A DNA stretch of 64,000 bases from Candidatus Nealsonbacteria bacterium (GTDB lineage Bacteria; Patescibacteriota; Minisyncoccia; Minisyncoccales; CAZKCU01), in assembly GCA_047456305.1 (NCBI GenBank), contig CP179888.1:317307-381306 (forward strand). The letters run 5' to 3'. Positions 7,611 to 46,674 of this stretch are shown piece after piece. The notes beneath the pieces are model-generated. The model was not told the origin of the DNA, searched no databases, and saw only the letters and a list, made by a program, of their open reading frames with translations. The translations under genes and the position numbers were made by a program. Position 1 is the first letter of the stretch. Each line of letters begins with the position of its first letter.

Positions 7611-7666
7611 GGAACCGTTCGCTTCGCTCACTGTAATCGCTTCACGGTTAAAGCTTCGCGATTAAT
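7611..7666 (+). repeat. Family B repeat, copy B1
   Basis: GGAACCGTTCGCTTCGCTCACTGTAATCGC..GCGATTAAT, ends at ATG 7667. Confidence 0.7.
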
Positions 7667-8230
7667 ATGCAAAATACTTATTTCATTTTGAGACATGGCC
7701 AAACAATTTATCAGACAAAAAAGAAAGATTTTATTTATCCTTGGCCAGAAATTTCCCCTGTTAAATTAACTCAAAAAGGAAAGGTAGAGATTAAAAAAGT
7801 AGCCAAATTGCTTAAAAAAAAGAAGATTGATTTAATTTATTCTTCCGATATTTTTCGAGCTCGTCAGACAGTCAAAATTATAAATAAGGAATTAGGGTTA
7901 AAAATAATTTTTGATTCAAGGTTACGAGACATAAATTTGGGGATTTACCATGACGGCAAAAAAGAGGAATTTTATCAAGATTTTCCGAGAGTTTTTCCAT
8001 TAAGATTTATAAAAAGACCTCCAGGTGGAGAAAGCTGGCAAGACTGCCAAAAAAGGATGGTAAATTTTTTAAAAGAAATTGACAAAAAATACAAAAACAA
8101 AAAAATCTTAATTGTCAGCCATGGCGATCCTTTGTGGCTTTTGGAGGGAGCGGTAAAGGGCTTAGACAATGAACAACTTTTGGAGCAAGAGTATATAGAA
8201 GTTGGCGAACTAAGGAAACTATGTCCATAG
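7667..8230 (+). CDS. histidine phosphatase family protein (phosphoglycerate mutase-like)
   Basis: N-terminal RHGQT catalytic motif and C-terminal SHGD motif. Confidence 0.7.
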   Translation: MQNTYFILRHGQTIYQTKKKDFIYPWPEISPVKLTQKGKVEIKKVAKLLKKKKIDLIYSSDIFRARQTVKIINKELGLKIIFDSRLRDINLGIYHDGKKEEFYQDFPRVFPLRFIKRPPGGESWQDCQKRMVNFLKEIDKKYKNKKILIVSHGDPLWLLEGAVKGLDNEQLLEQEYIEVGELRKLCP

Positions 8231-11109
8231 ATTTTCCTAAAATTGAGAAAAAAATCCTAAAATTCTGGCAAGAAAACAAGATTTTCGAAAAACTTAAAAA
8301 GAAAAACCAAGGGAAAAAGCGCTGGTCGTTTTTGGACGGACCGATTACTGCTAACAATCCTATGGGAGTTCATCATGCCTGGGGAAGAACCTATAAAGAC
8401 CTTTTTCAGAGATACAAGGCAATGCAGGGTTTTGACCAGAGATTTCAAAACGGTTTTGATTGTCAGGGTTTGTGGGTAGAGGTAGAAGTTGAGAAGGAGC
8501 TTGGATTCAAGAATAAAAAAGATATAGAGAAATACGGCATAGAAAAATTTGTCAAAAAATGCAAAGAGAGAGTTGAGAAATATTCGAAAATTCAAACAGA
8601 ACAATCAATCCGGCTGGGTCAATGGATGGATTGGGGGAATTCTTATTACACAATGTCTGATGAGAATAACTATGCTATTTGGTATTTCCTAAAAAAATGC
8701 CACAAAGAGGGATTTTTATATAAAGGCAGAGATGTTGTTCCCTGGTGCCCGAGATGTGGGACAGCCATTTCCCAACACGAAATTTTAACAGAAGAGTATA
8801 AAGAATTGACTCACAAATCAATATTTTTCAAGTTGCCAGTCCAAAACCTAAAGAAAACTTATTTTCTTGTCTGGACAACTACTCCCTGGACATTATCAGG
8901 CAATGTTGCAATAGCTATTCATCCTGATTTTGATTATGTAAAAGTAAAAGATAAAAAAGGCGACATTTTTATCTTACTTAAAGAAAAATCTGATTTAATT
9001 GAAGCTGGAGAAATAATAGAAACATTCAAGGGCAAGAAATTAGAGGGATTTGAATACGAGGGGTTGTTTGACGAATTGCCATCTGTAAAAGAAACCTTAG
9101 GCAGCTACAAGCATTCTGTAATTCTATGGAAAGAAGTAACCAAAGAAGAAGGAACTGGTATTGTTCATGTGGCGCCCGGCTGTGGCCAGGAGGATTTTCA
9201 ATTAGCTAAAGAATTTAAACTGCCTGTTATTGACTTAACTAATGATGAAAGCAGCTACCTAAAGGGTTTTGGAGAGTTGAGTGACAAGTTTGTTGGCGGA
9301 GAAGAAGTAAGAGAATTGATTTTTGAAGATTTAAACCAAAAAGATAGAGTTTTTAAAATTGAAGGCTATAAACACCGCTATCCAATTTGCTGGCGCTGCC
9401 AGTCAGAATTGATTTTCCGCTTGGTTGATGAATGGTATATTTCAATGGCAAAGTTAAGAGAAAAACTGATGAAAATTGCCAAAAAAATAAAATGGATTCC
9501 TCCCTTTGGTCTGGACAGGGAATTGGATTGGTTAAAAAATATGCAAGATTGGTTGATTTCTAAAAAACGTTATTGGGGATTAGCTTTACCGATTTATGAA
9601 TGCCCAGACTGCGGAAACTTTGAGGTAATCGGTTCCAAAAAAGAATTAAAAGAAAAAGCGGTTAAGGATTGGCAAGAGTTTGAAGGTCATTCTCCTCACC
9701 GACCCTGGATAGATAAAGTAAAGATTAAATGTTCCAAATGTGGCAAAATAGTTTCTCGAATTCCTGATGTTGGTAATCCTTGGTTAGATGCCGGGATTGT
9801 GCCCTTCTCTACTCTAAAGTATTTTTCTGACCGGGAATTGTGGCAAAAATGGTTTCCGCCTGAATTTATTTGCGAATCTTTCCCGGGTCAATTCAAAAAT
9901 TGGTTTTATTCCCTTATTGTAATGAGTACTGTATTAGAGGAAGTTACTCCAGTGAAGACAATCTTTGGCTACGCCACAGTAGTCGATGAAAAGGGAGAAG
10001 AAATGCACAAATCCAAAGGAAATGTTATTTGGTTTGATGAGGCAGTTGAAAAAATAGGGGCTGATCTGATGCGTTGGATGTATGTTAGACAAAATCCAGT
10101 CTATAATCTAAGGTTTGGCTACAAGATTGCCAAAGAAACCCAAAGGAAACTTTTGACACTGTGGAATAGCTACACCTTTTTTGAGACGTATGTCTCAAAA
10201 AAGGAAATCCCAAATCCCAAATCCCAAATCCCAAAATCTAAAAATATCTTAGATAAGTGGATTAATTCAAGATTGAATAGGTTGATTACTCAAGTTACCC
10301 AAAGCTTAGATAATTTTGATGCTGCCAGAGCAAGTTCAGCCATTGAAGATTTCTTCATTAATGATTTATCTCTTTGGTATATAAGGAGATCAAGAAAGAG
10401 ATTTCAAAGACCAAGAAAGGAAGAAGAAAAAGATGAAGCAGCCGGTACTCTTTATTTTATTCTTTTGACTCTGGCAAAACTGATTGCTCCGATGATGCCA
10501 TTTCTGGCTGAAGAAATTTATTTGGGCTTGAAAACAAAAAACGAACCCCAGTCTATCCATCTTTGCGACTGGCCAAAATATTATGAAAAAGCAATTGACG
10601 ATAATTTAGAGGAGAAAATGAGAAAAGTTCGGGAGATTATAACTAAGGTTTTAGCTAAAAGAACTGAACTTGGAATTAAAGTGAGGCAGCCCCTACAGGG
10701 ATTAAGAATTACGAATTATAAATTACGAAGGGAGAAAGAATTACTGGAGTTGATTAAGGACGAGGTAAATGTAAAAGAAATTACTTTTGGCAAAACATTA
10801 AAATTGGATACAAAGATTAGCAAAGAGTTAAAAGAGGAGGGTCAGGTTCGAGAATTTATCCGACAAGTTCAGCAATTACGAAAAAACGCCAAACTCACCC
10901 CAAAAGATAAAATTATTATTTATTGCGAATGCCAGGAGAAACTGAAAAAAGTTTTACAAAAAAATAAAAAAGACATTTTAACAGAAACCAAGGCCAAAGA
11001 TTTTATCTTAGGAGGAAAAATTAAAAAGGCATTTAATGCGGAAAAGGAAATGCAAATCGGTCAACAAAAATTATGGTTAGGGATTAAAAAAAATCAAATA
11101 GTATGTTGA
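8221..11109 (+). CDS. ileS: isoleucine--tRNA ligase
   Basis: 962 aa; P..NNPMGVHH (HIGH), KMSKS variant (MHKSKGN), CP1 editing domain, zinc-ribbon cysteines. Confidence 0.95.
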   Translation: MSIDFPKIEKKILKFWQENKIFEKLKKKNQGKKRWSFLDGPITANNPMGVHHAWGRTYKDLFQRYKAMQGFDQRFQNGFDCQGLWVEVEVEKELGFKNKKDIEKYGIEKFVKKCKERVEKYSKIQTEQSIRLGQWMDWGNSYYTMSDENNYAIWYFLKKCHKEGFLYKGRDVVPWCPRCGTAISQHEILTEEYKELTHKSIFFKLPVQNLKKTYFLVWTTTPWTLSGNVAIAIHPDFDYVKVKDKKGDIFILLKEKSDLIEAGEIIETFKGKKLEGFEYEGLFDELPSVKETLGSYKHSVILWKEVTKEEGTGIVHVAPGCGQEDFQLAKEFKLPVIDLTNDESSYLKGFGELSDKFVGGEEVRELIFEDLNQKDRVFKIEGYKHRYPICWRCQSELIFRLVDEWYISMAKLREKLMKIAKKIKWIPPFGLDRELDWLKNMQDWLISKKRYWGLALPIYECPDCGNFEVIGSKKELKEKAVKDWQEFEGHSPHRPWIDKVKIKCSKCGKIVSRIPDVGNPWLDAGIVPFSTLKYFSDRELWQKWFPPEFICESFPGQFKNWFYSLIVMSTVLEEVTPVKTIFGYATVVDEKGEEMHKSKGNVIWFDEAVEKIGADLMRWMYVRQNPVYNLRFGYKIAKETQRKLLTLWNSYTFFETYVSKKEIPNPKSQIPKSKNILDKWINSRLNRLITQVTQSLDNFDAARASSAIEDFFINDLSLWYIRRSRKRFQRPRKEEEKDEAAGTLYFILLTLAKLIAPMMPFLAEEIYLGLKTKNEPQSIHLCDWPKYYEKAIDDNLEEKMRKVREIITKVLAKRTELGIKVRQPLQGLRITNYKLRREKELLELIKDEVNVKEITFGKTLKLDTKISKELKEEGQVREFIRQVQQLRKNAKLTPKDKIIIYCECQEKLKKVLQKNKKDILTETKAKDFILGGKIKKAFNAEKEMQIGQQKLWLGIKKNQIVC
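10206..10240. repeat. 7-nt periodic tandem array H2 inside ileS
   Basis: AATCCCA x4 (perfect) then AAATCTA; translated IPNPKSQIPKSK. Confidence 0.8.
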
Positions 11110-12113: not shown

Positions 12114-12119
12114 AGGTCG

Positions 12120-12147
12120 AATTTTAATTGTTAAATTATAAATTAAT
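12120..12147. repeat. weak 7-nt periodic AT-rich array H3 (intergenic)
   Basis: AATTTTA ATTGTTA AATTATA AATTAAT just upstream of ATG 12153; low complexity. Confidence 0.35.
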
Positions 12148-12152
12148 TATTT

Positions 12153-12530: not shown

Positions 12531-13268
12531 ATGTTCACCCATTACAGAACTCAAGGGATTTTTTTGAAAAAAGAAAATCGGGGAGAGGCCGATCAGCTTT
12601 TTACAATTTATACTAAAGATTTTGGAAAATTAGAGATTTTGGGAAGAGCTATCAGGAAAATCAAATCAAAATTAAGAGCAGGAGCCGAACTTTTTTATTT
12701 TTCAGAGATTGAATTTATTCAGGGGAAAGCCTACAAAACCCTAACCGATGCCATTTTAATTGAGAAATTTGAAAATATCAGAAAAGATTTAGAGAGATTG
12801 GGGATTTGTTATCAGATTTCAGAAGTTTTGGATAATTTAGTCAAAGGCCAAGAAAGAGATGAAAAAATCTGGCAGCTCCTAAACGAGGTTTTTAATAAAT
12901 TAAATAACCGTCAATTCTCAATTATCAATTGTCAATTGTCATATTACTATTTCCTCTGGAACCTTTTTTCTCTTTTAGGGTTTAAACCTGAGCTTTCTAC
13001 TTGCCCAATTTGCAGAGAGAAACTTTTACCCGAAACATTTCATTTTGTACCAAAAGAAGGAGGGGTAGTATGCTGGAGGTGTTTGAAAAAACTCAGCCCA
13101 GAAGAAAAAGAAAGAATAAAAGAAATAAGCGTAGGTACGGTTAAAATTTTAAGAATTTTTCTTTCAAAGAATTGGAAAATATTACCCAGACTTAAAATAA
13201 TAAAAGAAGAGAGAAAAAATCTAAAAGAGATATCAGAACTTTATCTTACTTTTTTAAAAGAAGCTTAA
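12531..13268 (+). CDS. recO: DNA repair protein RecO
   Basis: 245 aa; N-terminal OB-fold pattern and C-terminal zinc motif CPIC..CWRC. Confidence 0.8.
   Translation: MFTHYRTQGIFLKKENRGEADQLFTIYTKDFGKLEILGRAIRKIKSKLRAGAELFYFSEIEFIQGKAYKTLTDAILIEKFENIRKDLERLGICYQISEVLDNLVKGQERDEKIWQLLNEVFNKLNNRQFSIINCQLSYYYFLWNLFSLLGFKPELSTCPICREKLLPETFHFVPKEGGVVCWRCLKKLSPEEKERIKEISVGTVKILRIFLSKNWKILPRLKIIKEERKNLKEISELYLTFLKEA
12911..12945. repeat. 7-nt periodic tandem array H4 inside recO
   Basis: TCAATTC TCAATTA TCAATTG TCAATTG TCATATT; translated QFSIINCQLSY. Confidence 0.75.
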
Positions 13269-13289
13269 AGTATGCTAAAATAGATTAAA

Positions 13290-14978
13290 ATGAAAGGGAA
13301 ATTAATAAAAGTCGTTATCATTTTAACAATTATCTTAGGGATAGCCAGTTTTTGGTATTATCAAAGGAATATTTACTCCAAAGAAAGTTTGAGAGTGGAA
13401 ATTTTGGGGACAGAAGAAGCAGAAATGGCTCAAGAAATTGAATATATAGTGAAATATAAAAATAACGGCAACATCAGGTTGGAAGAACCAAAACTTATTT
13501 TTGAATATCCTAAAAATTCAATAGTTATAGGAGAAGAAATCCGGTCTGAAAATCAGGAAGCCCTGCCTCAAGAAGAAGTATCTCTAAGACAAGAAAAAGA
13601 ACTCGAGGATATCTACCCTGGCCAAGAGCGAACCTTCCATTTTAAAGCCAGATTGTTAGGTAGAGAAAATGAAGCTAAGATTGCCAAGGTTTGGTTAAGT
13701 TATAAACCAAAAAATCTAAAAACTCGCTATGAGTCAGCCACCACTTTCACTACTTTAATTAAAAGTGTTCCTCTTACTTTTGAGTTTGATTTTCCTTCAA
13801 AAGTTGAGCCTGGCAAAAAAACTCTCTTTAGGTTAAATTATTTTTCAAATATAGATTATCCTATTTCTAATTTAAGAATAAAGATTGAATATCCTTCTGG
13901 CTTTGAGTTTTTTGAGAGCCAACCAAAAGCCCTGGGGAAAACAGAGTGGGAGATTCCACTTTTAAATAAGGCTGGGGGAGGAAGAATTGAAGTTTCTGGT
14001 ATTCTGAGAGGCGAGGTTCAAGAGTCAAAAATCTTTCGGGCAAATTTGGGCATCTGGCAGGAAGGAGAATTTGTTTTGTTAAAAGAGACGATTAAGGGAA
14101 TAGAAATTACCAGACCTTCGATTTTTGTCTCCTATCAAATTAATAATTCTCCTCAATATGTTGCTAACCCTGGGGATTACCTGTATTACGAAATCTTCTT
14201 TAAAAATACCGGAGAAGAAGTTTTGGAAAATTTATTTTTGGTAGTTCAATTAGAAGGAGGAGTTTTAGATTTTAATACCCTTCAAGCTGGAGTCGGCCAA
14301 TTTCAAAAAGATTCAAACTCAATTATCTGGGACCATATCGTGTTCCCTCAATTACGCCTTCTCGATAGTATGGAAGAGGGAAAAGTTGGATTTTGGGTAA
14401 AAGTAAAAGATGATTTACCAATCAAGAATCCTCTAATCAGGACTAAAGTTAGTCTGAGTCAGGTTAAAGAAGAATTTATTACTAAAATCAACACAAAGCT
14501 GGCTATTTCTCAGGAAGGTTATTTTAACAAGGGAGCTTTTAAAAATTATGGACTTCTTCCTCCCCGGGTTGGTTCTGCAACAGCTTATACCATCTTTTGG
14601 CAGGCTAAAAATTTTTACAACGATGTTAAAAATCTAAAAGTTAAAGCTAATTTACCTCTTCAGGTGAGATTAACTGGCGAGATTTCTTCAAAAGAAGCTA
14701 AGTTTTCTTTTGATCCTACAAGCCGGGAAATTGTCTGGGAAATTGGGGAGTTAGCAGCAGGGAAAGGAATTTTAGGCCCTGGGCCTGAGATTTCCTTTCA
14801 AGTTGCTTTAACTCCTGATTTAACTCAAAGAGGAGAGATTCCTGAACTTATTTCTCGAGTTAGAATAATCGGAGACGATATCTGGACAAGAGAAGAGGTA
14901 GAGGCTATAGCTGGAGCAGTTAATACTTCTTTGCCAGATGACCCGACTATTACTGAGGAGATGGGTCAGGTCCAATAA
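13290..14978 (+). CDS. membrane-anchored extracellular protein with repeated beta-sandwich (DUF11/CARDB-like) regions
   Basis: 562 aa; N-terminal TM helix; repeated YxxxxKNxGxxxL patterns. Confidence 0.4.
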   Translation: MKGKLIKVVIILTIILGIASFWYYQRNIYSKESLRVEILGTEEAEMAQEIEYIVKYKNNGNIRLEEPKLIFEYPKNSIVIGEEIRSENQEALPQEEVSLRQEKELEDIYPGQERTFHFKARLLGRENEAKIAKVWLSYKPKNLKTRYESATTFTTLIKSVPLTFEFDFPSKVEPGKKTLFRLNYFSNIDYPISNLRIKIEYPSGFEFFESQPKALGKTEWEIPLLNKAGGGRIEVSGILRGEVQESKIFRANLGIWQEGEFVLLKETIKGIEITRPSIFVSYQINNSPQYVANPGDYLYYEIFFKNTGEEVLENLFLVVQLEGGVLDFNTLQAGVGQFQKDSNSIIWDHIVFPQLRLLDSMEEGKVGFWVKVKDDLPIKNPLIRTKVSLSQVKEEFITKINTKLAISQEGYFNKGAFKNYGLLPPRVGSATAYTIFWQAKNFYNDVKNLKVKANLPLQVRLTGEISSKEAKFSFDPTSREIVWEIGELAAGKGILGPGPEISFQVALTPDLTQRGEIPELISRVRIIGDDIWTREEVEAIAGAVNTSLPDDPTITEEMGQVQ

Positions 14979-17668: not shown

Positions 17669-17727
17669 TAGGCGAAGAGAACTTCGTTCTCTTCTTCACC
17701 TTCGCTTTCGCTGCGCGAAAGCTCGGT
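17669..17727 (+). repeat. Family A repeat, copy A3 (forward, most complete)
   Basis: TAGGC-GAAGAGAAC TTC GTTCTCTTC-TTCACCTTCGC-TTTCGC TGC GCGAAA-GCTCGGT; ends 2 nt before ATG 17730. Confidence 0.8.
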
Positions 17728-25043: not shown

Positions 25044-25097
25044 TAGGCGATGAGGACTTCGTCCTCATCTTCACCTTCGCTTCTGCGGAAGCTCGGT
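25044..25097 (+). repeat. Family A repeat, copy A4 (forward)
   Basis: TAGGC-GATGAGGAC TTC GTCCTCATC-TTCACCTTCGC-TTC TGCG GAA-GCTCGGT; 27 nt before ATG 25125. Confidence 0.8.
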
Positions 25098-25124: not shown

Positions 25125-26807
25125 ATGGGAGAAGTTCTCTTAAATAAATCTGGTAAAAAAAATATTTTATTAGGTAACGAAGCCATTTGTCGGGGAGCTT
25201 TGGAATCAGGGGTTCAATTTGTTTCTACTTATCCTGGAACCCCGGCTTCAGAAATTGGAAATACCTTTTTTAAACTTTCTCAAGCAGGAAAATATAAAGG
25301 TTATTTTGAGTTTTCTACCAATGAAAAAGTAGCTTTGGAAGCAGGAATTGGAGCTTCTTTTTCTGGTTTGAAAACTTTGGTGGCAATGAAAAATTTTGGG
25401 ACAAATGTTGCTTTAGATGCTTTAATTCCCTTTGTTTATACGGGAACCAAAGGCCCTACAGTAATAATATCTGCCGATGATCCTTCCTGCCACAGTTCAG
25501 CTCAATCGGAAGAGAATACCAGAGGGATTTCTTATTTAGCTCATATTCCAACTTTGGAACCTTCTGACCCTCAAGAATGCAAGGATTTTACAAAATTAGC
25601 TTTTAAAATTTCTGAAAAATTCAAAATTCCAGTAATGATAAGAACTACAACCAGAGTTGCTCACCAGCGAGCAATAGTAGAGCTCTCAAATATTCAACAC
25701 CCAAGGTTGGTAAAGGGTGGATTTGTTAAAGACCCTAAAAGATTCGTGACCATGCCTCCGAGAGTTTTAGAAATGAAAAAAGAGCTGCTTAAAAAAATCG
25801 AACAAATCAGAAAATTTTCCGAAAAAAACCCTATAAATTCAATCTCCCGAGCGGTAGCGAAAGGAAAAGAAGAAGATTTATCTTCTTCGCCCTATCGATT
25901 TACGAAATCAATAGATGGAGTGGGGGTGATTACTTCAGGGATTGCTTATTTATATGTAATGGAGGCATTAAATGAGCTTAATTTAAAATTGCCAGTTTTG
26001 AAGCTGGGATTTTTTTATCCCCTGCCGGAAAAGAAAATTCAAAATTTCATTAAAAAATTTAAAAAAGTTTTGATTGTTGAAGAATTAGAGCCATATTTAG
26101 AAAAAGAAATAGAAAGATTAGCAAAAGATGTAAACTCCGAATTAGAGGTAATTGGCAAAAAAATACTATCTGAAGTTGGTGAATTAAAACCCGAAAATGT
26201 AATCTTAGCCATCGCTAAAATTACTGGAAAAAACTACCAACTAAGAACTAAAAACTATCAACTAAAGACTAAGCGTTCTCCTCAGCTTTGTCCAGGTTGT
26301 CCTTATTGGTTAGTTTTTGGAGCAGTTAAAAAAGCGGTTGACTCAAAGAAGGTAATTTTTGGTGGAGACATTGGCTGCTATATGTTGGCTGGCCTGCCTC
26401 CTCATTTCCTTCAAGATTATCTTTCTTGTATGGGTTCTTCAATAGGAATTGCTCACGGGATAAAAAAAGTGACTGGTCAAAAATTAATTACTTTTATTGG
26501 TGACTCAACTTTTTTTCACGCCGGTATCCCAGCTTTGATTAATACAGTTTTCAATAAATCCAATCCTTTAATTATCGTAATGGAGAACCAAACCACTGCA
26601 ATGACCGGTCACCAGCCCCATCCGGGGGCGCCAGCCAAACCAGATGGAATTAAAATAGAAGAAATTGTTAAAGCTTGCGGTGTAAAGAATTTAAAAGTAA
26701 TTGACCCTGTCAATCAAAAAGACTTTATCGCTACCATTAAAGAATTTTTGAACAAAAAAGATGTATCAGTAATTATAGCTCGCCATCCATGCGTAAGGAT
26801 AAAATAG
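25125..26807 (+). CDS. iorA: indolepyruvate:ferredoxin oxidoreductase alpha subunit
   Basis: 560 aa; TPP-binding 2-oxoacid:ferredoxin oxidoreductase pattern, CPGCPY and GDIGCY motifs; followed by iorB. Confidence 0.85.
   Translation: MGEVLLNKSGKKNILLGNEAICRGALESGVQFVSTYPGTPASEIGNTFFKLSQAGKYKGYFEFSTNEKVALEAGIGASFSGLKTLVAMKNFGTNVALDALIPFVYTGTKGPTVIISADDPSCHSSAQSEENTRGISYLAHIPTLEPSDPQECKDFTKLAFKISEKFKIPVMIRTTTRVAHQRAIVELSNIQHPRLVKGGFVKDPKRFVTMPPRVLEMKKELLKKIEQIRKFSEKNPINSISRAVAKGKEEDLSSSPYRFTKSIDGVGVITSGIAYLYVMEALNELNLKLPVLKLGFFYPLPEKKIQNFIKKFKKVLIVEELEPYLEKEIERLAKDVNSELEVIGKKILSEVGELKPENVILAIAKITGKNYQLRTKNYQLKTKRSPQLCPGCPYWLVFGAVKKAVDSKKVIFGGDIGCYMLAGLPPHFLQDYLSCMGSSIGIAHGIKKVTGQKLITFIGDSTFFHAGIPALINTVFNKSNPLIIVMENQTTAMTGHQPHPGAPAKPDGIKIEEIVKACGVKNLKVIDPVNQKDFIATIKEFLNKKDVSVIIARHPCVRIK
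25846..25891 (-). repeat. Family A repeat, copy A5 (reverse), in frame inside iorA
   Basis: CCCGAGC-GGTA-GCGAAAGGAAAA-GAAGAAGAT TT ATCTTCTTC-GCC; translated SRAVAKGKEEDLSSS. Confidence 0.7.
25892..25916. repeat. REP-like palindrome, copy R1, in frame inside iorA
   Basis: CTATCGATTTACGAAATCAATAGAT, same sequence as the copies flanking the Y1 transposase at 62530 and 63060; translated PYRFTKSID. Confidence 0.8.
26232..26273. repeat. 7-nt (21-nt) periodic tandem array H8 inside iorA
   Basis: AACTACC AACTAAG AACTAAA AACTATC AACTAAA GACTAAG; translated KNYQLRTKNYQLKTK. Confidence 0.8.
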
Positions 26808-31439: not shown

Positions 31440-32315
31440 ATGGCGAAAATCCTCGATGGTAAAAAATTATCTGAAGAAATTTTAGAGAATCTTAAAAAAG
31501 ATTACAACCCGTCCACCGCGTCCTCCCACCCGCCGAAGGGCGGGAGGGCCCCTATTAAAAAGAGGAAATTGAAGTTAAGATTGGCAGTAGTCCAAGTTGG
31601 AGAAAACCCAGTTTCTAAAATTTTTATCAATCAGAAAGAAAAAGCCTGTGAAAAAGTTGGCATTGATTTTAAGCTATTTAAATTTTCAACAAAAGCCAAA
31701 ACTCAAAAATTAAAAAAAGAAATTGGGGGAATTATTAAAAATTCAAGCAATTCAGGGGTAGTTATCCAATTACCTTTACCTAAAAAATTTTTGATAGAAG
31801 AATTTTTAAATTTAATTCCAGAAGAAAAAGATATTGATGTTCTATCTGAAAAAAGTTTAGGAAAATTTTATCAAGGGACATTGCCAATTCTCCCGCCAAC
31901 TGTCAGCGGGATTTTCCGTCTTTTAAAAAGTTATCAAATAAAAGTAAAAGGTAAAAACGTTGTTATTGTGGGTGCTGGAAGATTAATTGGTAACCCTTTA
32001 GTCCTCAGGCTTTTACAGCAAGAAGCAACCATTTCAGTTCTTAATGAATTTACAAAAGATACTCCTTCTTTTACAAAAAAAGCCGATATTTTAATTTCTG
32101 GAGTAGGCAAACCTGATTTAATTACCGGGAAGATGGTTAAAAAAGGAGTGGTGGTAATTGATGCCGGAACCTTTATTAAGAAAGGCAGGTTAGTGGGCGA
32201 TGTTAATTTTAAATCAGTTTCCAAAAAAGCAAGCTATATTACCCCGGTCCCTGGCGGTGTAGGACCAATGACCGTAGCCTGCCTAATTGAAAATTTGGTG
32301 AAACTTAATTTATGA
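31440..32315 (+). CDS. folD: bifunctional methylenetetrahydrofolate dehydrogenase/cyclohydrolase
   Basis: ILDGK start, VVQVGENPVS, VVIVGAGRLIGNP, PVPGGVGPMT motifs. Confidence 0.9.
   Translation: MAKILDGKKLSEEILENLKKDYNPSTASSHPPKGGRAPIKKRKLKLRLAVVQVGENPVSKIFINQKEKACEKVGIDFKLFKFSTKAKTQKLKKEIGGIIKNSSNSGVVIQLPLPKKFLIEEFLNLIPEEKDIDVLSEKSLGKFYQGTLPILPPTVSGIFRLLKSYQIKVKGKNVVIVGAGRLIGNPLVLRLLQQEATISVLNEFTKDTPSFTKKADILISGVGKPDLITGKMVKKGVVVIDAGTFIKKGRLVGDVNFKSVSKKASYITPVPGGVGPMTVACLIENLVKLNL
31507..31553 (+). repeat. GC-rich imperfect hairpin carried in frame inside folD
   Basis: CCCGTCCACCGCGTCCTCCCACCCGCC GAAG GGCGGGAGGGCCCC; translated NPSTASSHPPKGGRAP; composition contrasts sharply with the AT-rich flanks. 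Confidence 0.65.
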
Positions 32316-32884
32316 ATTTGGATTTCTTTTTATTTCAACAAATTAATAGTCTTGCTGGAAAATGGTTATGGCTCGATAGTTTGAGTATTTATTTTGCTGA
32401 ACATTTCGAGCATGTTTTATGGTTCATTCTTTTTTTGTTTTTACTGAAAAATTACAAACCGTTCGCTCAGCTCCCTGTAATCCCGCGATTAAAGAAAAAA
32501 TACTGGCCGATGATAATTCAGGCTTTTGGGGCAGCAATTTTAGCAAGATTAGTTGTTGTTAATTTTATTCGCTGGCTTTGGCCAAGACCCAGACCATTTA
32601 TTGAAAACACTGTTAATTTGCTCCTATCTCATAAGGCAGCTTCTTTTCCTTCTGGTCATGCTGCCTTTTATTTTGCTATATCTACGGTTGTTTATTTTTA
32701 CAATAAAAAAGCTGGCATCGGATTTTTTGTTGCCAGTTTTTTAATTTCTATTTCCCGAGTGATTTGTGGAATTCACTGGCCATCTGATATTTTGGTTGGA
32801 GCTTTGATTGGAATTTTTTCTGCTTGGTTGATTATTCTTTTTTTTCAGCGATTTTTCTCAACCTCATCGAAACAATCACTATAA
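32312..32884 (+). CDS. PAP2 family phosphatase (undecaprenyl-diphosphatase-like)
   Basis: 190 aa, about 5 TM segments; PSGH and SRV..G.H..SD PAP2 motifs. Confidence 0.7.
   Translation: MNLDFFLFQQINSLAGKWLWLDSLSIYFAEHFEHVLWFILFLFLLKNYKPFAQLPVIPRLKKKYWPMIIQAFGAAILARLVVVNFIRWLWPRPRPFIENTVNLLLSHKAASFPSGHAAFYFAISTVVYFYNKKAGIGFFVASFLISISRVICGIHWPSDILVGALIGIFSAWLIILFFQRFFSTSSKQSL
32457..32494 (+). repeat. Family B repeat, copy B5, in frame inside PAP2 gene
   Basis: AACCGTTCGCTCAGCTCCCTGTAATCCCGCGATTAAAG aligns with B1 apart from an internal deletion; translated KPFAQLPVIPRLK. Confidence 0.65.
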
Positions 32885-33791: not shown

Positions 33792-35906
33792 TTATTTTGC
33801 CATATTTTTCTCGAAATTGCAATCTTTGTCGGAACACTTAATTTTCCTCCCTTTTTCTACCAAAAGTGAGCCGCATTTTGGGCATTTTTTTCCTGTTGGC
33901 TTATCCCATAAGGCAAAATCACATTTTGGCCATTGATTGCAGCCATAAAAGATTTTTTTCTTTTTAGTTCTTTTTTCAACTATCTCACCCTTTTTACATT
34001 TTGGGCATTTAATTCCCAATTTCTTTTTTTCAAAAGGTTCAGTATATTTACATTTAGGAAAGCGAGAGCAGCCATAGAATTTTCCGAATTTCCCCAGCCG
34101 AATTAAAAGTTGGGCTTTGCATTCTGGACAGATTTTTTCGGTTTTTTCAGTTAAAACCTTTTTTGAAACCTCCTGATATTTTTGTTTTAGGTTTTTTTCG
34201 AAAGGATTGTAAAAATCTCTTATAACCTGAACCCATTTTTCTTTCCCTTGGGCAATTTTATCTAAATCCTCTTCCATTAGGGCGGTAAATTTAATATCAA
34301 CAATTTTTGGGAAGTGTTCTACCAAAATATCGTTCACTACTGTTCCAATTTCAGTTGGTTGAAAGCGCTTCTCTGTATTTTTCTCAATATAATTTCTTTC
34401 TTGAACTGTAGATAAAATGGGGGCATAAGTTGAGGGTCTGCCAATACCATTTTCTTCCAAAGCCTTAATTAGAGTAGCTTCACTGTATCGAGGAGGAGGC
34501 TGAGTAAAGTGCTGGGAAGGAATTAATTTTATAAGTTCTAAAATTTCATTTATCTCTAAAAGTGGCAATTCAGTCTCCTCATATCTTATTGGATATATTT
34601 TTAGAAATCCATCAAACTTCAAGACCTGGCCAGTAGCTTTAAAAGTGTAATTTTTAGCGCCAATATCAATAGTCGTTGAGTCAAGAACAGCTTGACTCAT
34701 CTGACAAGCAATAAATCTTCGCCAGATAAGATCGTAAAGCCGAAACTGCCTCTTGTCTAATTTTGCTTTAATTTTTAAATTTTCAGGAGTTTTCTCAGGA
34801 TAGGTCGGCCTTATTGCCTCATGAGCTTCCTGGGCCCTTTTAATTTTTGTTTTATATCTTCTTAAAAAACCAGCCCAATATTCTTTGCCATAACTCTCAA
34901 TGATAAATTTTCTGGCAGCAAATAAAGATAAATCAGAGAGATTCAGAGAATCGGTTCGATGGTAACTCGTGTATCCCCTTTCATAAAGTTGTTGTGCCAC
35001 TTGCATTGTTAGCCTTGCCGGCCAGTGAAACCTTTTCCAGGTTTCCTGTTGTAAGGTGCTGGTGCTAAATGGCGGTAGGGGATTCCTTTTCACTTCCTTT
35101 CTTTCAATATTGATTACTTTGTATACACAAGCTCGGCGAAGCCGAGCGCAGCGTGAAGATGAAGCGTTAGCTTCATCGACTTCAGCTTTTTCTAAATCTT
35201 TAACAATTTTATCTGCTTCTTTTTTAATTTTAATTCCAAGTTTTGGAATAGTTTCCCCATCTCTTTTAATTAAAATAGCTTCAAGTTGCGGAGAACCGTT
35301 CTCTGTAATTTTCTTAAGTTGGGCGGCAATTGTCCAGTATTCTTGGGGTACAAAATTTTTAATTTCTCTTTCCCTTTCTACAACCAGACGAACTGCTACT
35401 GACTGAACTCTTCCAGCTGACAGGCGTCGAGCCACCTTTTTCCATAAAAAAGGGGATAATTTATAACCAACAATTCTATCTAAAATTCTTCTCGTTTGTT
35501 GAGCATCAACCAAATTTAAATCAATTTTTCTTGGATTCTTTAATGCCTCCTCAATAGCAGATTTTGTAATCTCATGAAAAACAATTCTTTGATAAGGTTT
35601 TTGGCCATTTAGATTTAAAATCTTGGTCAAATGCCAGGCAATACTTTCGCCCTCTCTGTCCGGATCGGTACTTACTATTACTAAATCTGCTTTCTCCACC
35701 TCTTTTTTTAAAACCTGAATTATCTTTCTTGATTTGGGAGGAATAACATATTTAGGTTTAAAGTTATGTTCAACATCAATCCCAAATTCACCCTTAGGCA
35801 AATCTCTGATGTGACCATAGGAAGAAAGAACCCGATATTTAGGGCCTAAAAATCCTTGAAGTGTTTTTGATTTCGTTGGTGACTCAACTACTACGATTAA
35901 TTGCAT
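33792..35906 (-). CDS. topA: DNA topoisomerase I
   Basis: 704 aa; Toprim (VVVESPTKSKT), active-site region YTSYHRTDS, C-terminal C4 zinc-ribbon repeats. Confidence 0.95.
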   Translation of the reverse strand: MQLIVVVESPTKSKTLQGFLGPKYRVLSSYGHIRDLPKGEFGIDVEHNFKPKYVIPPKSRKIIQVLKKEVEKADLVIVSTDPDREGESIAWHLTKILNLNGQKPYQRIVFHEITKSAIEEALKNPRKIDLNLVDAQQTRRILDRIVGYKLSPFLWKKVARRLSAGRVQSVAVRLVVEREREIKNFVPQEYWTIAAQLKKITENGSPQLEAILIKRDGETIPKLGIKIKKEADKIVKDLEKAEVDEANASSSRCARLRRACVYKVINIERKEVKRNPLPPFSTSTLQQETWKRFHWPARLTMQVAQQLYERGYTSYHRTDSLNLSDLSLFAARKFIIESYGKEYWAGFLRRYKTKIKRAQEAHEAIRPTYPEKTPENLKIKAKLDKRQFRLYDLIWRRFIACQMSQAVLDSTTIDIGAKNYTFKATGQVLKFDGFLKIYPIRYEETELPLLEINEILELIKLIPSQHFTQPPPRYSEATLIKALEENGIGRPSTYAPILSTVQERNYIEKNTEKRFQPTEIGTVVNDILVEHFPKIVDIKFTALMEEDLDKIAQGKEKWVQVIRDFYNPFEKNLKQKYQEVSKKVLTEKTEKICPECKAQLLIRLGKFGKFYGCSRFPKCKYTEPFEKKKLGIKCPKCKKGEIVEKRTKKKKIFYGCNQWPKCDFALWDKPTGKKCPKCGSLLVEKGRKIKCSDKDCNFEKNMAK
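35129..35180 (-). repeat. Family A repeat, copy A6, in frame inside topA (forward relative to the mRNA)
   Basis: + strand AAGCTCGG CGAAG CCGAGC-GCA-GCGTGAA-GATGAAGC GTTA GCTTCATC-GAC; translated (minus strand) EVDEANASSSRCARLRRAC. Confidence 0.7.
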
Positions 35907-39906: not shown

Positions 39907-39936
39907 AGTTATTTAATTATAAGCAAAGCTTGAAGT

Positions 39937-39966
39937 TGGTCGTTCGGGCCCTCACTCCCAATTATA
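39937..39966 (+). repeat. Family B-like repeat, copy B4 (diverged)
   Basis: GGTCGTTCGGGCCCTCACTCCCAATTAT compared with GRACCGTTCGCTNNGCTCACTRTAAT; lies upstream of A7 and lepB. Confidence 0.45.
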
Positions 39967-40009: not shown

Positions 40010-40065
40010 GGCAGAGAGGACTTCGTCCTCTTCTTAACCTTCGCCATTATAAATAAAAGCTCGGT
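40010..40065 (+). repeat. Family A repeat, copy A7 (forward)
   Basis: AAGGC-AGAGAGGAC TTC GTCCTCTTC-TTAACCTTCGC-CATTATAAATAAAA-GCTCGGT; ends 2 nt before ATG 40068; hairpin 2 is replaced by AT-rich sequence. Confidence 0.75.
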
Positions 40066-40067
40066 GT

Positions 40068-41976: not shown

Positions 41977-41982
41977 CCAATT

Positions 41983-42309: not shown

Positions 42310-42334
42310 AGAAGAGATTTATCTCTTCGCCTAG
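42288..42334 (-). repeat. Family A repeat, copy A8 (reverse)
   Basis: CCGAGC-CGCAGG-CGAAAGATGAA-GAAGAGAT TT ATCTCTTC-GCCTAG; supplies the last codons (SRAAGER) and the stop of the HIT gene; 13 nt before the rpsU ATG. Confidence 0.7.
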
Positions 42335-42346
42335 TGAAAAACCAAT

Positions 42347-42565
42347 ATGATTTTAGAAGTTAAAAAACAAGAAAGGGAAAGTCCCCAGAGTTTAACTCGC
42401 CGCTTCTACCGCAGGGTTCAACAAAGCGGGATTTTGCATCGGGCAAGAAAAAACAGGTTTAGAAAGAGAAAAAAATCTGAACAGATGAAAAAGAGAGCAG
42501 CTTTAAGAAGAGAAGAGATAAAAAGAGAATATGAAAAATTAAGAAAATTGGGTAAACTAAAATAA
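42347..42565 (+). CDS. rpsU: 30S ribosomal protein S21
   Basis: 72 aa highly basic, L.RRF.R.....G pattern. Confidence 0.8.
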   Translation: MILEVKKQERESPQSLTRRFYRRVQQSGILHRARKNRFRKRKKSEQMKKRAALRREEIKREYEKLRKLGKLK

Positions 42566-42583
42566 GCCAGCGTTTTTCAGCAA

Positions 42584-43099
42584 ATGGAAAAAATAAAAGA
42601 AAAAATCCAAAACGATTTAAACCAAGCAGTGAAGAAAAAAGGAGAATTAGAATCTCTAGTTTTACGGCAGCTTTCAGCAGCTATTTTAAATAAAGAAAAA
42701 GAAAAAAGATATAAATTAAGCAAGGAAAAACCAGAACTGAAAGAAGCAGAATTGGCAAAAGAAAGTCAACTTACTGACCAAGAGATAATAGAAGTTATCT
42801 CTTCAGAAGTTAAAAAAAGAAAGGAAGCCTCTTCAGAATTTGAGAAAGGAAAAAGAATCGACCTGGCAGAGAGAGAAAAAAAAGAGATGGAAATTCTCGA
42901 AAAATATCTACCTGAGCAACTTTCTGAAGAAAAGCTTAAAGGATTAGTTAAAGAGGCGATTGCAAAAACTGGTGCTACAGAACCCAAAGATATGGGAAAA
43001 GTAATGGCAGAGCTAATGCCAAAAGTTAAAGGGAAAGCAGAAGGAGCTGTGGTAAGCAAAATTGTAAAAGAATTATTGACCCCAAAAGAGGAGATTTAA
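42584..43099 (+). CDS. GatB/YqeY domain protein
   Basis: 171 aa; L..A.K..D...L..LR...A; C-terminal MGKVM..L..K.KG.A.G pattern. Confidence 0.8.
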   Translation: MEKIKEKIQNDLNQAVKKKGELESLVLRQLSAAILNKEKEKRYKLSKEKPELKEAELAKESQLTDQEIIEVISSEVKKRKEASSEFEKGKRIDLAEREKKEMEILEKYLPEQLSEEKLKGLVKEAIAKTGATEPKDMGKVMAELMPKVKGKAEGAVVSKIVKELLTPKEEI

Positions 43100-43106
43100 T
43101 TTTAAA

Positions 43107-43949
43107 ATGACTTCCATTTCTAAAATTTGGACTGTAGTTGTTCTTACTATCTTTATTCTGGGAGGAATCTTAGTTTGGGAGTATTGGTTTTTTAAACAGG
43201 AAGAGGCAAAGGTATCTAAAGAAAAAGAAGAGGAAATAAAATTATCGCAAGAACTTACCCCTGAAATGATAGAGAAAAATGTCGGAGAGATAATTAATAA
43301 AGTGCTTCCTTTAAATTTTGATAGAAAAAATGCAGAATATCTTATTGATGATTTAAATAATGATGGATGGTTAGAAATTATTGTTACAGCTTGCCTCCCT
43401 ACTACAAAAGCTCAATATTATAAAAAAGCCTATCTTGGTGTCCTGAAAGTTCTTAACAAAAGAGGAGATTATCAAAAGATTGGAGAGCTTGAATTTGGGG
43501 AACCTGTTACCATATTCAGGGCTATCCCGAAAGTTGCTGAATTAGATGATTTAGAGAGCTTGCAAGATATTGATGGCGATGGTCAAAAAGAAATAATTTT
43601 ATATTTAGGAGCAGGAGGTGCTAGCAATGAAGCCTATGGAATCTTTGGTCTGGATTGGTCTAAACAAGAAATTAATTGGTTAAATATGCGTTACGAGTCG
43701 GGAGCTGTCCAGCCAACATTTCTCCTTAGAGGAGGATCAGTTATGCACCAGGAGACCTTCCAATTAAATGATATTGATGGAGATGGTAGATTGGAAATTA
43801 TCGAGAAAAACGGAGGATTTATAGGAAGCTCATTGGTAGAAGAGAAAGACTGGTTAAAAGAAGAAAATTGGCAATGGCAGAAAAAAGTATATAGGTGGGA
43901 TGGAGGAGTTTTTTCTTACGATAAAGAGCTTACTGAACAACTGGATTGA
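43107..43949 (+). CDS. membrane-anchored protein with FG-GAP/VCBS-like repeats
   Basis: N-terminal TM helix; DLNNDGWLEIIV, DIDGDGQKEIIL, DIDGDGRLEIIE repeats. Confidence 0.4.
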   Translation: MTSISKIWTVVVLTIFILGGILVWEYWFFKQEEAKVSKEKEEEIKLSQELTPEMIEKNVGEIINKVLPLNFDRKNAEYLIDDLNNDGWLEIIVTACLPTTKAQYYKKAYLGVLKVLNKRGDYQKIGELEFGEPVTIFRAIPKVAELDDLESLQDIDGDGQKEIILYLGAGGASNEAYGIFGLDWSKQEINWLNMRYESGAVQPTFLLRGGSVMHQETFQLNDIDGDGRLEIIEKNGGFIGSSLVEEKDWLKEENWQWQKKVYRWDGGVFSYDKELTEQLD

Positions 43950-43960
43950 GAACCATAAAG

Positions 43961-44007
43961 AGAACCGTTCACTTCGCTCACTGTAATTTGCTCCGCAAAT
44001 TAAAACT
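43961..44007 (+). repeat. Family B repeat, copy B2
   Basis: AGAACCGTTCACTTCGCTCACTGTAATTTGC TCC GCAAATTAAAACT, ends at ATG 44008. Confidence 0.7.
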
Positions 44008-44406
44008 ATGGTTGAAATTAATAATTTAACTACCAATCCAATTGATGAGGAATTTTTAAAGAGGGTTGCAAAAAAAGTTTTGGAAGGGGAAAATAAGAAA
44101 AAAGATAATTTATCTATTGTTTTAGTTGGCCAGGGAAGAATGAGAGAATTAAATAAAAAATATCGGAAGAAAAATAAAGTTACAGATGTTTTAACTTTTG
44201 GCGATGGGTTAAATGAAATTGTTATTTGTCTTCGGGAAGTGAAGAAAAATGCTAAGGGGTTTAAATCGAGTTTTGAAAAAGAACTGGCCCGGGTTTTAAT
44301 CCATGGAATTTTGCATCTTTCAGGATATAATCATGAAAGAAGCGAAATGAGAGCTAAAAAAATGGAAGACAAACAAAATTACTATTTATCCCGATTTAAT
44401 TTATAA
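44008..44406 (+). CDS. ybeY: rRNA maturation endoribonuclease YbeY
   Basis: HGILHLSGYNH zinc motif; 132 aa. Confidence 0.85.
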   Translation: MVEINNLTTNPIDEEFLKRVAKKVLEGENKKKDNLSIVLVGQGRMRELNKKYRKKNKVTDVLTFGDGLNEIVICLREVKKNAKGFKSSFEKELARVLIHGILHLSGYNHERSEMRAKKMEDKQNYYLSRFNL

Positions 44407-44410
44407 GAAT

Positions 44411-45628
44411 ATGCCTAGGTCCCATATTATAACTGGTTTAGACATCGGAACAAGCGCTATAAAAGTCCTGGTTATTCAAAAAAAACCTGGGGAATCAGAA
44501 ATAGAAGTTTTGGAAAAGAACCAACAAAAAGCTTCAGGGATTAGAAGAGGAGTGGTTGTTAATATTGAAGAGGTGGCAGGGATTATCTCTTCTTCTATAA
44601 AGAAAGCTGAGGAGAGGTCAGGTAAGAGAATAAATAGTGTCTACGCTAATATTGGTGGAAGCCACATATTTTGTACCTCTTCTCATGGATTAGTCTCAGT
44701 TTCTCGGGCTGACCAAAAAATTTCTTCAGAAGATATTGAAAGAGTAATTCAGGCTGCCAGGACTTTTTCTTTACCCGCAAATAAAGAAATTTTGGAGGTT
44801 TTTCCTAAAGAATTTATTGTCGATGGGGAAAAAGGAATAAAAGAACCTTTAGGAATGCGAGGGGTAAGGTTGGAAGCTGAAGTATTAGTTCTTGGTGGTT
44901 TTTCTCCCTATTTAAAAAATTTGACTCAGGCAATTTTAAATTCCGACCTCCAGATTAATGACTTAATATTGACTTCTCTGGCCAGCTCAAGAGCGGTTCT
45001 TACCCCTAGAGAGAAAGAATTGGGAGTGGCCCTTTTAGATATTGGGGCCGGGACTAGTTCTCTGGCTGTTTTTGAAGAGGAAGATTTAATTCATACGGCC
45101 ATATTTCCAATTGGATCTGCTAATATTACATCAGATATTGCCATTGGTCTTAGAACTGATATTGATACGGCTGAAAGAATTAAATTAGAATTTGGCTCTT
45201 GCTTGTTTCAGAAAACCAGAAAAAAAGAAAAAATCAAAGGGGAGTTTTTGCCAGAACCATTGGTTTTTTCTCAAAAAAACCTGGTAGAAATTATTGAGGC
45301 CAGGGTTTCGGAAATTTTTGACCAGGTTAATAAAGAATTAAAGAAAATTTCTCGCTTAAGTCTTCTCCCAGCCGGAATAGTTTTAACCGGGGGAGGGGCA
45401 AAATTGCCCAAAATTACTGATCTTGCTAAAAAAGAATTAAAACTTCCTTGTCGGATTGGACTCCCTCTGGGATTTTTTCCTCCCCAGGAAGATCCTTCTT
45501 TATCTGCAGTTTGTGGTTTAGCTCTTAGGGGAGTTGATCTCGAAACCGAAAGAGGTGTATCTGGTTTTAATTTCGGAGAAGGAATTGGAGCAAAACTAAA
45601 AAAAATATTTAAAATTTTTATACCATGA
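44411..45628 (+). CDS. ftsA: cell division protein FtsA
   Basis: 405 aa actin-like ATPase (GLDIGTS, LDIGAGTS, LTGGGA) with a C-terminal amphipathic tail. Confidence 0.9.
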   Translation: MPRSHIITGLDIGTSAIKVLVIQKKPGESEIEVLEKNQQKASGIRRGVVVNIEEVAGIISSSIKKAEERSGKRINSVYANIGGSHIFCTSSHGLVSVSRADQKISSEDIERVIQAARTFSLPANKEILEVFPKEFIVDGEKGIKEPLGMRGVRLEAEVLVLGGFSPYLKNLTQAILNSDLQINDLILTSLASSRAVLTPREKELGVALLDIGAGTSSLAVFEEEDLIHTAIFPIGSANITSDIAIGLRTDIDTAERIKLEFGSCLFQKTRKKEKIKGEFLPEPLVFSQKNLVEIIEARVSEIFDQVNKELKKISRLSLLPAGIVLTGGGAKLPKITDLAKKELKLPCRIGLPLGFFPPQEDPSLSAVCGLALRGVDLETERGVSGFNFGEGIGAKLKKIFKIFIP

Positions 45629-46554
45629 AAACTGCTACTAAAATTAAAGTAGTTGGTGTGGGCGGTTCTGGTTCAAATGCTGTATCGAGAATGATGAAAT
45701 GTAAAATTAAGGGGGTAGATTTGATTGCCATAAATACTGATGCCCAGGATTTAAAAAAAACCAGAGCCCATTTGAAACTTCGGATTGGTAGAAATTTAAC
45801 CAAAGGATTGGGGACAGGAATGAATCCGGAAATCGGCAGAAAGGCTGCCGAAGAAAATAAAGAAGAAATTTCAGAAATTTTAAAAGGTTCAGATATGATT
45901 TTTATTACTGGAGGATTTGGTGGAGGGACTTGCAGTGGGGCAGCGCCAATTGTTGCCCAGATAGCAAAAGGAACTGGAGCCTTGACGATTGCTATTGTAA
46001 CCAAACCTTTTTCTTTTGAAGGTGCTTTTCGCCAGAGGATTGCTGAAAATGGCTTAAAAAAGTTAAAAGAAAAAGTTGATACCTTAATTTCTATTCAGAA
46101 TGATAGACTGCTGGAAATTTTAGACCCCCAAACTTCAGTTTTGAATGCTTTTTGGGTTTGTGATGAAATACTGAGGCAGGCTGTCCAGGGAATTTCCGAT
46201 TTAATTGTTCTTCCGGGGATTATTAATGTTGATTTTGCTGATATTAAAGCAATTATGGAAAATTCAGGGTCAGCTTTGTTTGGGATAGGCAAGGCCAAAG
46301 GGGAAAGGAGAGCGACAGCTGCCGCTCTATCTGCTATTAGTTCGCCCTTACTTAATACATCGATAATTGGAGCAAAGGGAGTTTTATTTAATATTAGCGG
46401 AGACCGAAATATCAGTCTTTCCGAAATAAATGAGGCAGCCAAGGTTATTACTGAGAATGTATCTCCGGATGCCAAAGTAATTTTTGGAGCAGTTCAGTCA
46501 GAAATTTTAAGAAAAGGAGAAATAAAAGTGACTGTAATTGCTACTGGGTTTTGA
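45625..46554 (+). CDS. ftsZ: cell division protein FtsZ
   Basis: GVGGSGSNAV, tubulin signature GGFGGGTCSG, NTDAQ. Confidence 0.95.
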   Translation: MKTATKIKVVGVGGSGSNAVSRMMKCKIKGVDLIAINTDAQDLKKTRAHLKLRIGRNLTKGLGTGMNPEIGRKAAEENKEEISEILKGSDMIFITGGFGGGTCSGAAPIVAQIAKGTGALTIAIVTKPFSFEGAFRQRIAENGLKKLKEKVDTLISIQNDRLLEILDPQTSVLNAFWVCDEILRQAVQGISDLIVLPGIINVDFADIKAIMENSGSALFGIGKAKGERRATAAALSAISSPLLNTSIIGAKGVLFNISGDRNISLSEINEAAKVITENVSPDAKVIFGAVQSEILRKGEIKVTVIATGF

Positions 46555-46583
46555 AAGGACTTTTCCACAGGTTTTGGCTTTAA

Positions 46584-46606
46584 TCCCGGATTGACGGGGT
46601 TTTTTT
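46584..46606 (+). terminator. weak intrinsic terminator after ftsZ
   Basis: TCCCG GATTGA CGGGG followed by T7. Confidence 0.4.
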
Positions 46607-46630
46607 GTTGGGTTAGAATAAAATAATTTA

Positions 46631-46674
46631 GCGGACCGTTCGCTCAACTCACTATAATTTACTCCGTAAATTAT
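46631..46674 (+). repeat. Family B repeat, copy B3
   Basis: GCGGACCGTTCGCTCAACTCACTATAATTTAC TCC GTAAATTAT, ends at ATG 46675. Confidence 0.7.

Follow-up and report, generated by a model that had tools for sequence, protein, structure and literature searches.

Family B repeats in the window and beyond

The 64-kb stretch of a Candidatus Nealsonbacteria genome analysed here (64,000 nucleotides of contig CP179888.1; hereafter the window) has a G+C content of 34% and consists of tightly packed bacterial housekeeping genes, among which recurs a short repeat, Family B, composed of a conserved box, or head, and the hairpin that follows it. An earlier note, made from the sequence alone, had reported three near-identical copies ahead of the genes encoding a histidine phosphatase, YbeY and NrdD, and had considered them as a promoter or start-codon-control module. 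Each of these copies matches the box GRACCGTTCRCTYNRCTCACTRTAAT on the + strand with 0 mismatches (7612-7637, 43962-43987 and 46633-46658), where the note had placed them; shuffled window sequence yielded 0 matches, and none are expected by chance. A fourth match, which the note had not listed, lies at 32456-32481 (+) and has 2 mismatches. Consistent with these matches, a covariance model constructed from 37 distinct copies recovers exactly four copies in the 64 kb of the window, one of them intragenic:

7609-7666, + strand: copy 1, between argS (stop 7605-7607) and the histidine phosphatase gene (ATG 7667); 61 bits, E 5e-13
43957-44006, + strand: copy 2, between an FG-GAP protein gene (stop 43947-43949) and ybeY (ATG 44008); 63.8 bits
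46633-46678, + strand: copy 3, at the 5' end of nrdD; 47.7 bits
32453-32493, + strand: copy 4, inside the PAP2 phosphatase gene 32312-32884; 41.8 bits

As the note had described, the hairpins of copies 1 to 3 begin within the TAAT at the end of the head and adjoin a start codon, ending 2 nt (histidine phosphatase), 5 nt (ybeY) and 1 nt (nrdD) before the respective ATGs. Specifically, the hairpin of copy 1 (7634-7664) has a 7-bp stem, TAATCGC/GCGATTA, and a 17-nt loop that contains 14 nt more (ACGGTTAAAGCTTC) than that of the copy at locus L016, while those of copy 2 (43984-44002) and of copy 3 (46655-46673), whose head carries the TATAAT variant of the hexamer, each have an 8-bp stem and a 3-nt loop. 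Copy 4 is an in-frame insertion of 39 nt, KPFAQLPVIPRLK, with a shortened hairpin, TAATC-CCGC-GATTA (32478-32491), by which a TAA stop is avoided in the PAP2 reading frame. When folding was compared with that of shuffled sequences, copy 3 alone folded clearly better (z = -3.6) and the other three window copies did not differ significantly. One further, weak model match at 35290-35318 (+) (GGAGAACCGTTCTCTGTAATTTTCTTAAG, E 0.03-0.06), antisense to the topoisomerase I gene, was rejected as a diverged copy; it is conserved in the topoisomerase gene of a relative (L071:1301-1329) and is therefore probably coding sequence.

Family B is not confined to this genome. Scanning of public collections for CCGTTCRCTNNNCTCNCTRTAAT produced 16 loci from ~10 Patescibacteria genomes labelled Parcubacteria, Gribaldobacteria and others, as well as 50 loci in a metagenome collection; metagenome loci L024, L028 and L039 are fragments of the same organism as the window. 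Once duplicates and a few chance matches in G+C-rich coding sequence were removed, ~40 distinct copies with a hairpin remained, and the additional copies that the note had proposed to look for thus exist in many Patescibacteria genomes. Their consensus, RRAACCGTTCGCTTCGCTCACTGTAAT-TTGC-TTC-GCAA-ATTAA, comprises an asymmetric head of ~25 nt (RRAACCGTTCGCTTCGCTCACTG) and an AT-rich hairpin of the form TAAT-NNN(N)-triloop-N'N'N'(N')-ATTA, for a total length of ~40-48 nt. The observation that the stems differ while remaining complementary holds across the family: over the 37 distinct copies 97.7% of stem cells are paired and the TAAT/ATTA outer pairs are invariant, pairing falls to 34-46% when the partner is slid 1-3 columns 5' or 1 column 3', and two apical pairs covary (G-C in 24 copies, C-G in 5 and A-U in 4 for one pair; C-G in 31 and U-A in 3 for the other). 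At the foot of the hairpin stands (C)TGTAAT, in which GTAA, not GTAG, is near-invariant, a conservation forced by the search pattern, and TAAT belongs to the stem. Copies recovered by the covariance model are more varied than those collected by pattern.

Copies occur in either orientation, and their settings include spacers between co-directional genes, spacers between convergent genes (L010, L042, L052) and positions antisense to the genes on both sides (L003, L006, L014, L044). Some copies are nested within the hairpin of another copy (L005:1940-2030, and also L001), and others are arranged in tandem (L021, L030, L023). At L019:2224-2419 an intact tRNA-Lys gene is followed, 32 nt on, by a duplicate of its 3' part from the anticodon stem onward, and the anticodon loop of this partial duplicate carries a Family B copy. 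A long composite form (L003:2780-2900, L007:560-730, L014:4880-5010 (-), L022:930-1146, L044, L006, L009 and L034), in which GGTTCT-hairpin-GGTTCTTA modules and a conserved AATTCAAGAATATATAT stretch enclose Family B, occurs in varied gene contexts and genomes, is always antisense to the flanking genes and has the appearance of a mosaic put together from more than one family of repeats.

Orthologous sites without the element

Four relatives of the window organism share the gene order FG-GAP protein, ybeY, ftsA, ftsZ, nrdD, and their YbeY proteins are 79-94% identical to that of the window. In three of these relatives (L070, L071 and L073) the stop codon and the ybeY ATG are separated by a 10-nt spacer, ACCATAATT, and in the fourth by 30 nt; the corresponding spacer of the window measures 58 nt, and in the DNA alignment the surplus of 48 nt is the Family B element.

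At nrdD, all four relatives have TTGACG, 17 nt, TAAAAT, GTAATA and ATGTTTCAAAATAAAATT, that is, a sigma-70-like promoter that stops 6 nt short of the ATG, an arrangement which, as far as sequence can tell, is that of a leaderless message. A counterpart of this site is retained in the window:

46591-46632, + strand: native nrdD promoter-like site; TTGACG, 17 nt, TAGAAT (46591-46619, 10/12 matches), then the dead start ATT (46626-46628) and TAG

Here the order is TAGAAT-AAAATA-ATT-TAG-C, then the 46-nt element, then AAAATAAAATT. Read against the relatives, copy 3 evidently entered the ancestral nrdD frame behind its seventh base, and the old ATG decayed to ATT. The new ATG (46675-46677) lies at the 3' edge of copy 3, and the element separates the promoter-like site from the gene; 46591-46619, which is conserved in all four relatives, probably functions as a promoter.

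A third comparison is provided by the PAP2 gene, in which the insertion falls in a loop-coding part. In the protein alignment, 12 of 14 orthologues are without exactly the 13 residues contributed by copy 4, and the empty site is found in the DNA of relative L067, where AAAAACTTT is joined directly to AAGAAATAC. A more distant orthologue, P0011 (L068), which is an outgroup to the clade mostly without the element, has the element at exactly the same codon, and this occurrence in two non-sister lineages suggests either two insertions, and thus a target preference, or precise losses. The reciprocal case was also encountered, since at L008 an element immediately precedes the start codon of the gene that follows recO, and the window has the empty site at this position (13268-13290). 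Consistent with these comparisons, a model search of the syntenic 12-20 kb of the four relatives found no Family B copy; for copy 1, no orthologous argS/histidine phosphatase junction occurs among the fetched loci.

On the evidence of these alignments, the window copies with empty orthologous sites are shown to be recent, lineage-specific insertions. None of the four filled-versus-empty comparisons reveals a target-site duplication (at most 1-2 bases are ambiguous), and terminal inverted repeats are absent from the element, the ends of which, RRAACCG... and ...AAATTAA, are not complementary. Family B is, we consider it probable, a small, non-coding, non-autonomous insertion element of Patescibacteria that resembles repetitive extragenic palindromic (REP) sequences; it may be mobilised in single-stranded form by a transposase of the HUH (Y1) class.

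Regulatory alternatives and proximity to start codons

The regulatory interpretation takes Family B for a portable promoter or 5' leader cassette: TRTAAT would be its -10 hexamer, use of the neighbouring start codon would be governed by the hairpin, and copies would be kept for the expression that they confer. Several observations are in keeping with such a role: short-form copies are mostly co-oriented with the downstream gene (24 of 33 on the gene-sense, G-rich strand), copy 3, which cuts nrdD from its promoter, has a perfect TATAAT, one copy lies ~90 nt upstream of a tRNA-Glu gene, and the Correia elements of Neisseria are small repeats known to carry promoters. However, the failure of the earlier note to find a convincing -35 box is matched by a sigma-70 scan, which flags none of the boxes but does flag the native promoter-like site of nrdD that precedes copy 3, and the second hexamer position, where sigma-70 needs A, is G (TGTAAT) in 33 of the 37 aligned copies. 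In the three window copies next to start codons, 20-32 nt separate the hexamer from the ATG, as against 6-9 nt for the organism's own -10-like boxes, and a transcription start ~7 nt past the hexamer would fall inside the stem, so that the 5' arm would be lost and the covarying hairpin would be missing from the RNA. Copies that lie in a coding sequence, in convergent spacers or antisense to genes likewise argue against this role, as do the empty sites of relatives, in which the same genes are expressed without the element. A promoter or start-codon-control module is therefore not supported and, as a general explanation, appears unlikely, promoter activity being at most an accidental property of single copies. 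A replication-linked origin of the strand bias was set aside because, in genome fragments, such a bias is inseparable from gene-strand bias.

Two more specialised promoter types were rejected. T7-like promoters have a 23-nt consensus with CTCACTATA directly before +1; the resemblance to this motif is limited to copy 3 (CACTATA), the others having CACTGTA, viral contigs scanned for the Family B pattern contained 0 matches, and no gene for a phage-type single-subunit RNA polymerase is present among the scanned window genes. A promoter for an extracytoplasmic function (ECF) sigma factor (GGAAC, 16 nt, hexamer) does not fit, as the GG is not conserved and the supposed spacer is.

Might Family B instead be a structured cis-regulatory RNA, akin to a leader or riboswitch, placed before particular genes? 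Translational control would be compatible with the covarying hairpin and with its place beside the start codon. The downstream genes, however, show no functional coherence, neighbouring genes being functionally unrelated among copies, and the structure amounts to one simple hairpin, for which folding scores are not significant in three of the four window copies. Searches against Rfam returned only tRNAs at gathering scores and, even at the permissive threshold of E up to 1, only chance-level matches. As the element is present in some orthologues and absent from others, this explanation is largely refuted by the empty orthologous sites and must be considered very improbable.

A host-serving role of the sort proposed for some REPs, namely as a stabiliser or terminator at mRNA 3' ends or as a site for a DNA-binding protein, would explain why the head contains a palindrome (GAACCGTTC), why many copies start 2-26 nt past the stop of a co-directional upstream gene, including those at L010, L042 and L052 that have no co-directional downstream gene, and why similar sequence is found across distant lineages. 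Against it stand the weakness of the hairpin (~-5 kcal/mol as DNA), the lack of a T-run after the hairpin on either strand, by which a terminator in particular is rejected, the copy in frame inside a gene, and the dispensability of an element whose sites are empty in relatives. This role is accordingly rated as quite improbable.

The position of the copies beside start codons can be accounted for by the organisation of the genome. Spacers between co-directional window genes are mostly <50 nt, a Shine-Dalgarno-like 4-mer precedes 7 of the 57 window genes, which is below the 15% background, and in many genes a TAnAAT box stands 6-9 nt ahead of the ATG (for example at 46591-46628, 13270-13292, 415-429 and 54480-54501). 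These features suggest that leaderless or near-leaderless messages are widespread in this Nealsonbacteria lineage. Copies abut start codons because they have been inserted into ~10-20-nt spacers or into the first codons of genes in a compact genome, and since the spacers are short and hold no ribosome-binding site that could be destroyed, the seeming preference for start codons needs no regulatory explanation.

Known repeat systems, mobility and neighbouring repeats

Comparison with known repeats places Family B closest in kind to the REP sequences and their REP-associated tyrosine transposases (RAYTs). Like the REP and REPIN repeats of E. coli and Pseudomonas, Family B is short, non-coding, dispersed and mostly extragenic, forms clusters and nested arrangements, has a hairpin after what may be a comparable 5' motif (CTGTAAT in Family B, GTAG or GTGG in REPs) and lacks both terminal inverted repeats and target duplications; moreover, the lineage in which it occurs carries a single, syntenic Y1_Tnp/RAYT-like gene with inverted flanking hairpins. 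Unlike REPs, it has a long, asymmetric, non-palindromic head of ~25 nt, occurs mostly as singletons and not as inverted doublets, reaches a modest density of 4 in 64 kb and includes an intragenic copy, and the hairpins that flank the RAYT-like gene belong to another family. Palindrome-associated transposable elements (PATEs) derived from IS200/IS605 share with Family B an asymmetric layout, a subterminal hairpin, the absence of target duplication and the placing of the ends, one ~20 nt to the 5' side of the hairpin and the other a few nt to its 3' side. TTAC or TAC precedes some Family B insertions (PAP2 in two lineages, L016, L020 and L061), which recalls the target of IS608, although the TTAC context is not general. 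Unlike PATEs, Family B has one hairpin in place of distinct left-end and right-end hairpins, and no IS200/IS605 transposase or TnpB gene with Family B ends was found.

The remaining systems offer more limited likenesses. Rickettsia palindromic elements resemble the PAP2 copy in being small palindromic repeats that lie in frame, and can be translated, within a gene of a reduced genome, but these elements are ~100-150 nt long and many of them are in genes, whereas Family B measures ~45 nt and has one of its four window copies in a gene. Similarly, the Correia elements of Neisseria and other bacterial miniature inverted-repeat transposable elements are small repeats that land at gene starts, join the 5' untranslated region and can alter expression; they are bounded by terminal inverted repeats and by duplications of the target site (TA in the case of Correia elements), and as Family B has neither, it was rejected as an element of this type.

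IS200/IS605-type and REP elements are likewise asymmetric, with one conserved hairpin and neither inverted ends nor duplications, and HUH tyrosine (Y1) transposases process them in single-stranded form. Family B would be mobilised in a comparable manner by an HUH enzyme of the IS200/RAYT type, which, acting in trans, would recognise the hairpin and the head of the single-stranded element. While the empty sites demonstrate that the element inserts, we infer this mode of movement from the lack of terminal inverted repeats and of target duplication, the covarying hairpin, and the insertion of copies into the hairpins of other copies. The presence of a REP/RAYT-type gene in the same lineage fits such an interpretation as background. 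In the window this gene lies at 62559-63128 (-) and matches Pfam Y1_Tnp (37.9 bits) as well as the NCBIfam model for REP-associated tyrosine transposases (REP_Tyr_transpos; 43 bits, which is below that model's 80-bit cutoff), and its 231-aa orthologues are single-copy, syntenic and flanked on both sides by an inverted hairpin in the classic REP/RAYT layout.

Several observations nevertheless weigh against the interpretation of Family B as a REP-like element moved in this way. Firstly, the hairpins flanking the RAYT-like gene and its orthologues are those of Family C (CAATCTATTGATTT-ACG-AAATCRATAG), not of Family B, the window gene is truncated, with ~45 N-terminal codons missing relative to the 231-aa orthologues, and in the genome fragments searched no RAYT-like homologue lies within ~4 kb of any fetched Family B copy. 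The window gene was consequently rejected as the mobiliser of Family B, and no mobilising enzyme was identified among the window and the fetched loci. Secondly, the empty sites share no target motif and fold no better than shuffles; insertion aimed at hairpin loops or palindromes, as a 6-bp hairpin at the PAP2 empty site and a 10-nt palindrome at that of ybeY might have implied, was rejected on the latter ground. Thirdly, the near-invariance of the head was in part imposed by the search pattern with which the copies were collected. Finally, the excess of short-form copies on the gene-sense strand could reflect selection for function, not mechanism, and the perfect TATAAT of copy 3 makes some promoter activity conceivable in that copy.

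Patescibacteria (candidate phyla radiation) have tiny, streamlined genomes, and no description of this sequence or of small repeat families in these organisms was found in the searchable literature. Family B is best described as a small REP-like insertion element, in place of the regulatory module first considered, and its presence means that Patescibacteria genomes host at least one recently inserting element of ~45 nt, coexisting with a REP/RAYT-type gene. Such an element can part a gene from its promoter and force the use of a new start codon, as in nrdD, or add 13 residues to a membrane enzyme, as in PAP2. It follows that start codons and open reading frames (ORFs) beside these repeats should be annotated with caution, and that boxes which comparative motif searches would present as conserved regulatory sequences in these genomes may be mobile repeats. 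These findings also bear on continuing change in reduced genomes.

Family C was observed at further positions. The window hairpins at the RAYT-like gene lie at 62531-62570 and 63061-63100, the loop of the downstream one being flipped (CGT vs ACG). The window and relative L074 are near-identical from the internal Family C hairpin through the 3' flank but share nothing on the 5' side of this hairpin, which places a rearrangement breakpoint exactly at the hairpin. A third hairpin, TCGATTTACGAAATCAATAGATGG at 25895-25918 (+), lies in frame in a thiamine-pyrophosphate oxidoreductase ORF (25125-26807), where it encodes PYRFTKSID, and may be another insertion into a coding region.

Two other features of the window bear on statements of the earlier note:

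17676-17720, 25046-25096 and 40011-40067, + strand, and 57098-57160, - strand: Family A, a hairpin insertion element
~39914-39958, + strand: a 45-nt segment missing in L070, L071 and L072, flanked by a 7-nt direct repeat, AATTATA

Family A is an insertion element separate from Family B. It consists of a hairpin, GAGRACTTCGTYCTC, followed by TTCTTCACCTTCGC, a second hairpin and CTCGGTKT just before the ATG, and at two window sites it ends 3 nt before the ATG. Ahead of lepB it is absent in L070 and present in the window, in L071 (where the second module is in tandem repeats) and in L072. The suggestion that the two families are modules of one system found no evidence in its favour, the link between them being only loose: the TTCGC-rich stretch that they have in common is real, as a GC-TTC-GC motif, but short. 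The sequence upstream of lepB described as a diverged Family B copy (39937-39966, GTCGTTCGGGCCCTCACTCCCAAT) has no score with the covariance model but falls in the 45-nt segment that three relatives lack; possibly this segment is related to the element or a degenerate form of it.

Three of the insertions described above, those at nrdD and at L008 and that of Family A ahead of lepB, have a -10-like box on one side and the first codons on the other. A speculative extension, to which we assign a low probability, would hold that Family B and, independently, Family A are targeted to the initiation region of leaderless genes and act there as portable 5' leaders. The stretch from the -10 box to the first codons, single-stranded in the open promoter complex, would be the target of a putative Patescibacteria HUH enzyme, and insertion would turn leaderless messages into leadered, Shine-Dalgarno-less ones, occasionally donating a new start codon. 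If this is correct, such elements would offer ultra-small genomes a way to rewire the initiation of translation.

Apart from copy 3, nrdD contains a second in-frame insertion of 39 nt, YPPKFSERKLKRV, at 46699-46737 (+), which is missing in the four relatives; this sequence, found at a single place in the window, is a palindrome of the form ACCCGC...GCGGGT that encloses a TTTTC/GAAAA stem. The NrdD protein itself (46675-50826 +; 1383 aa) is lengthened by an intein with a LAGLIDADG endonuclease domain, and those of the relatives measure ~705 aa without an intein (L070, L071 and L073) or 1113 aa with one (L072). Lastly, the apparent 274-nt gap before the YqeY-domain gene (42584-43099) holds a small, very basic ORF of 72 aa (42348-42566, +) that resembles ribosomal protein S21 and for which a matching 72-aa gene is called in relatives.

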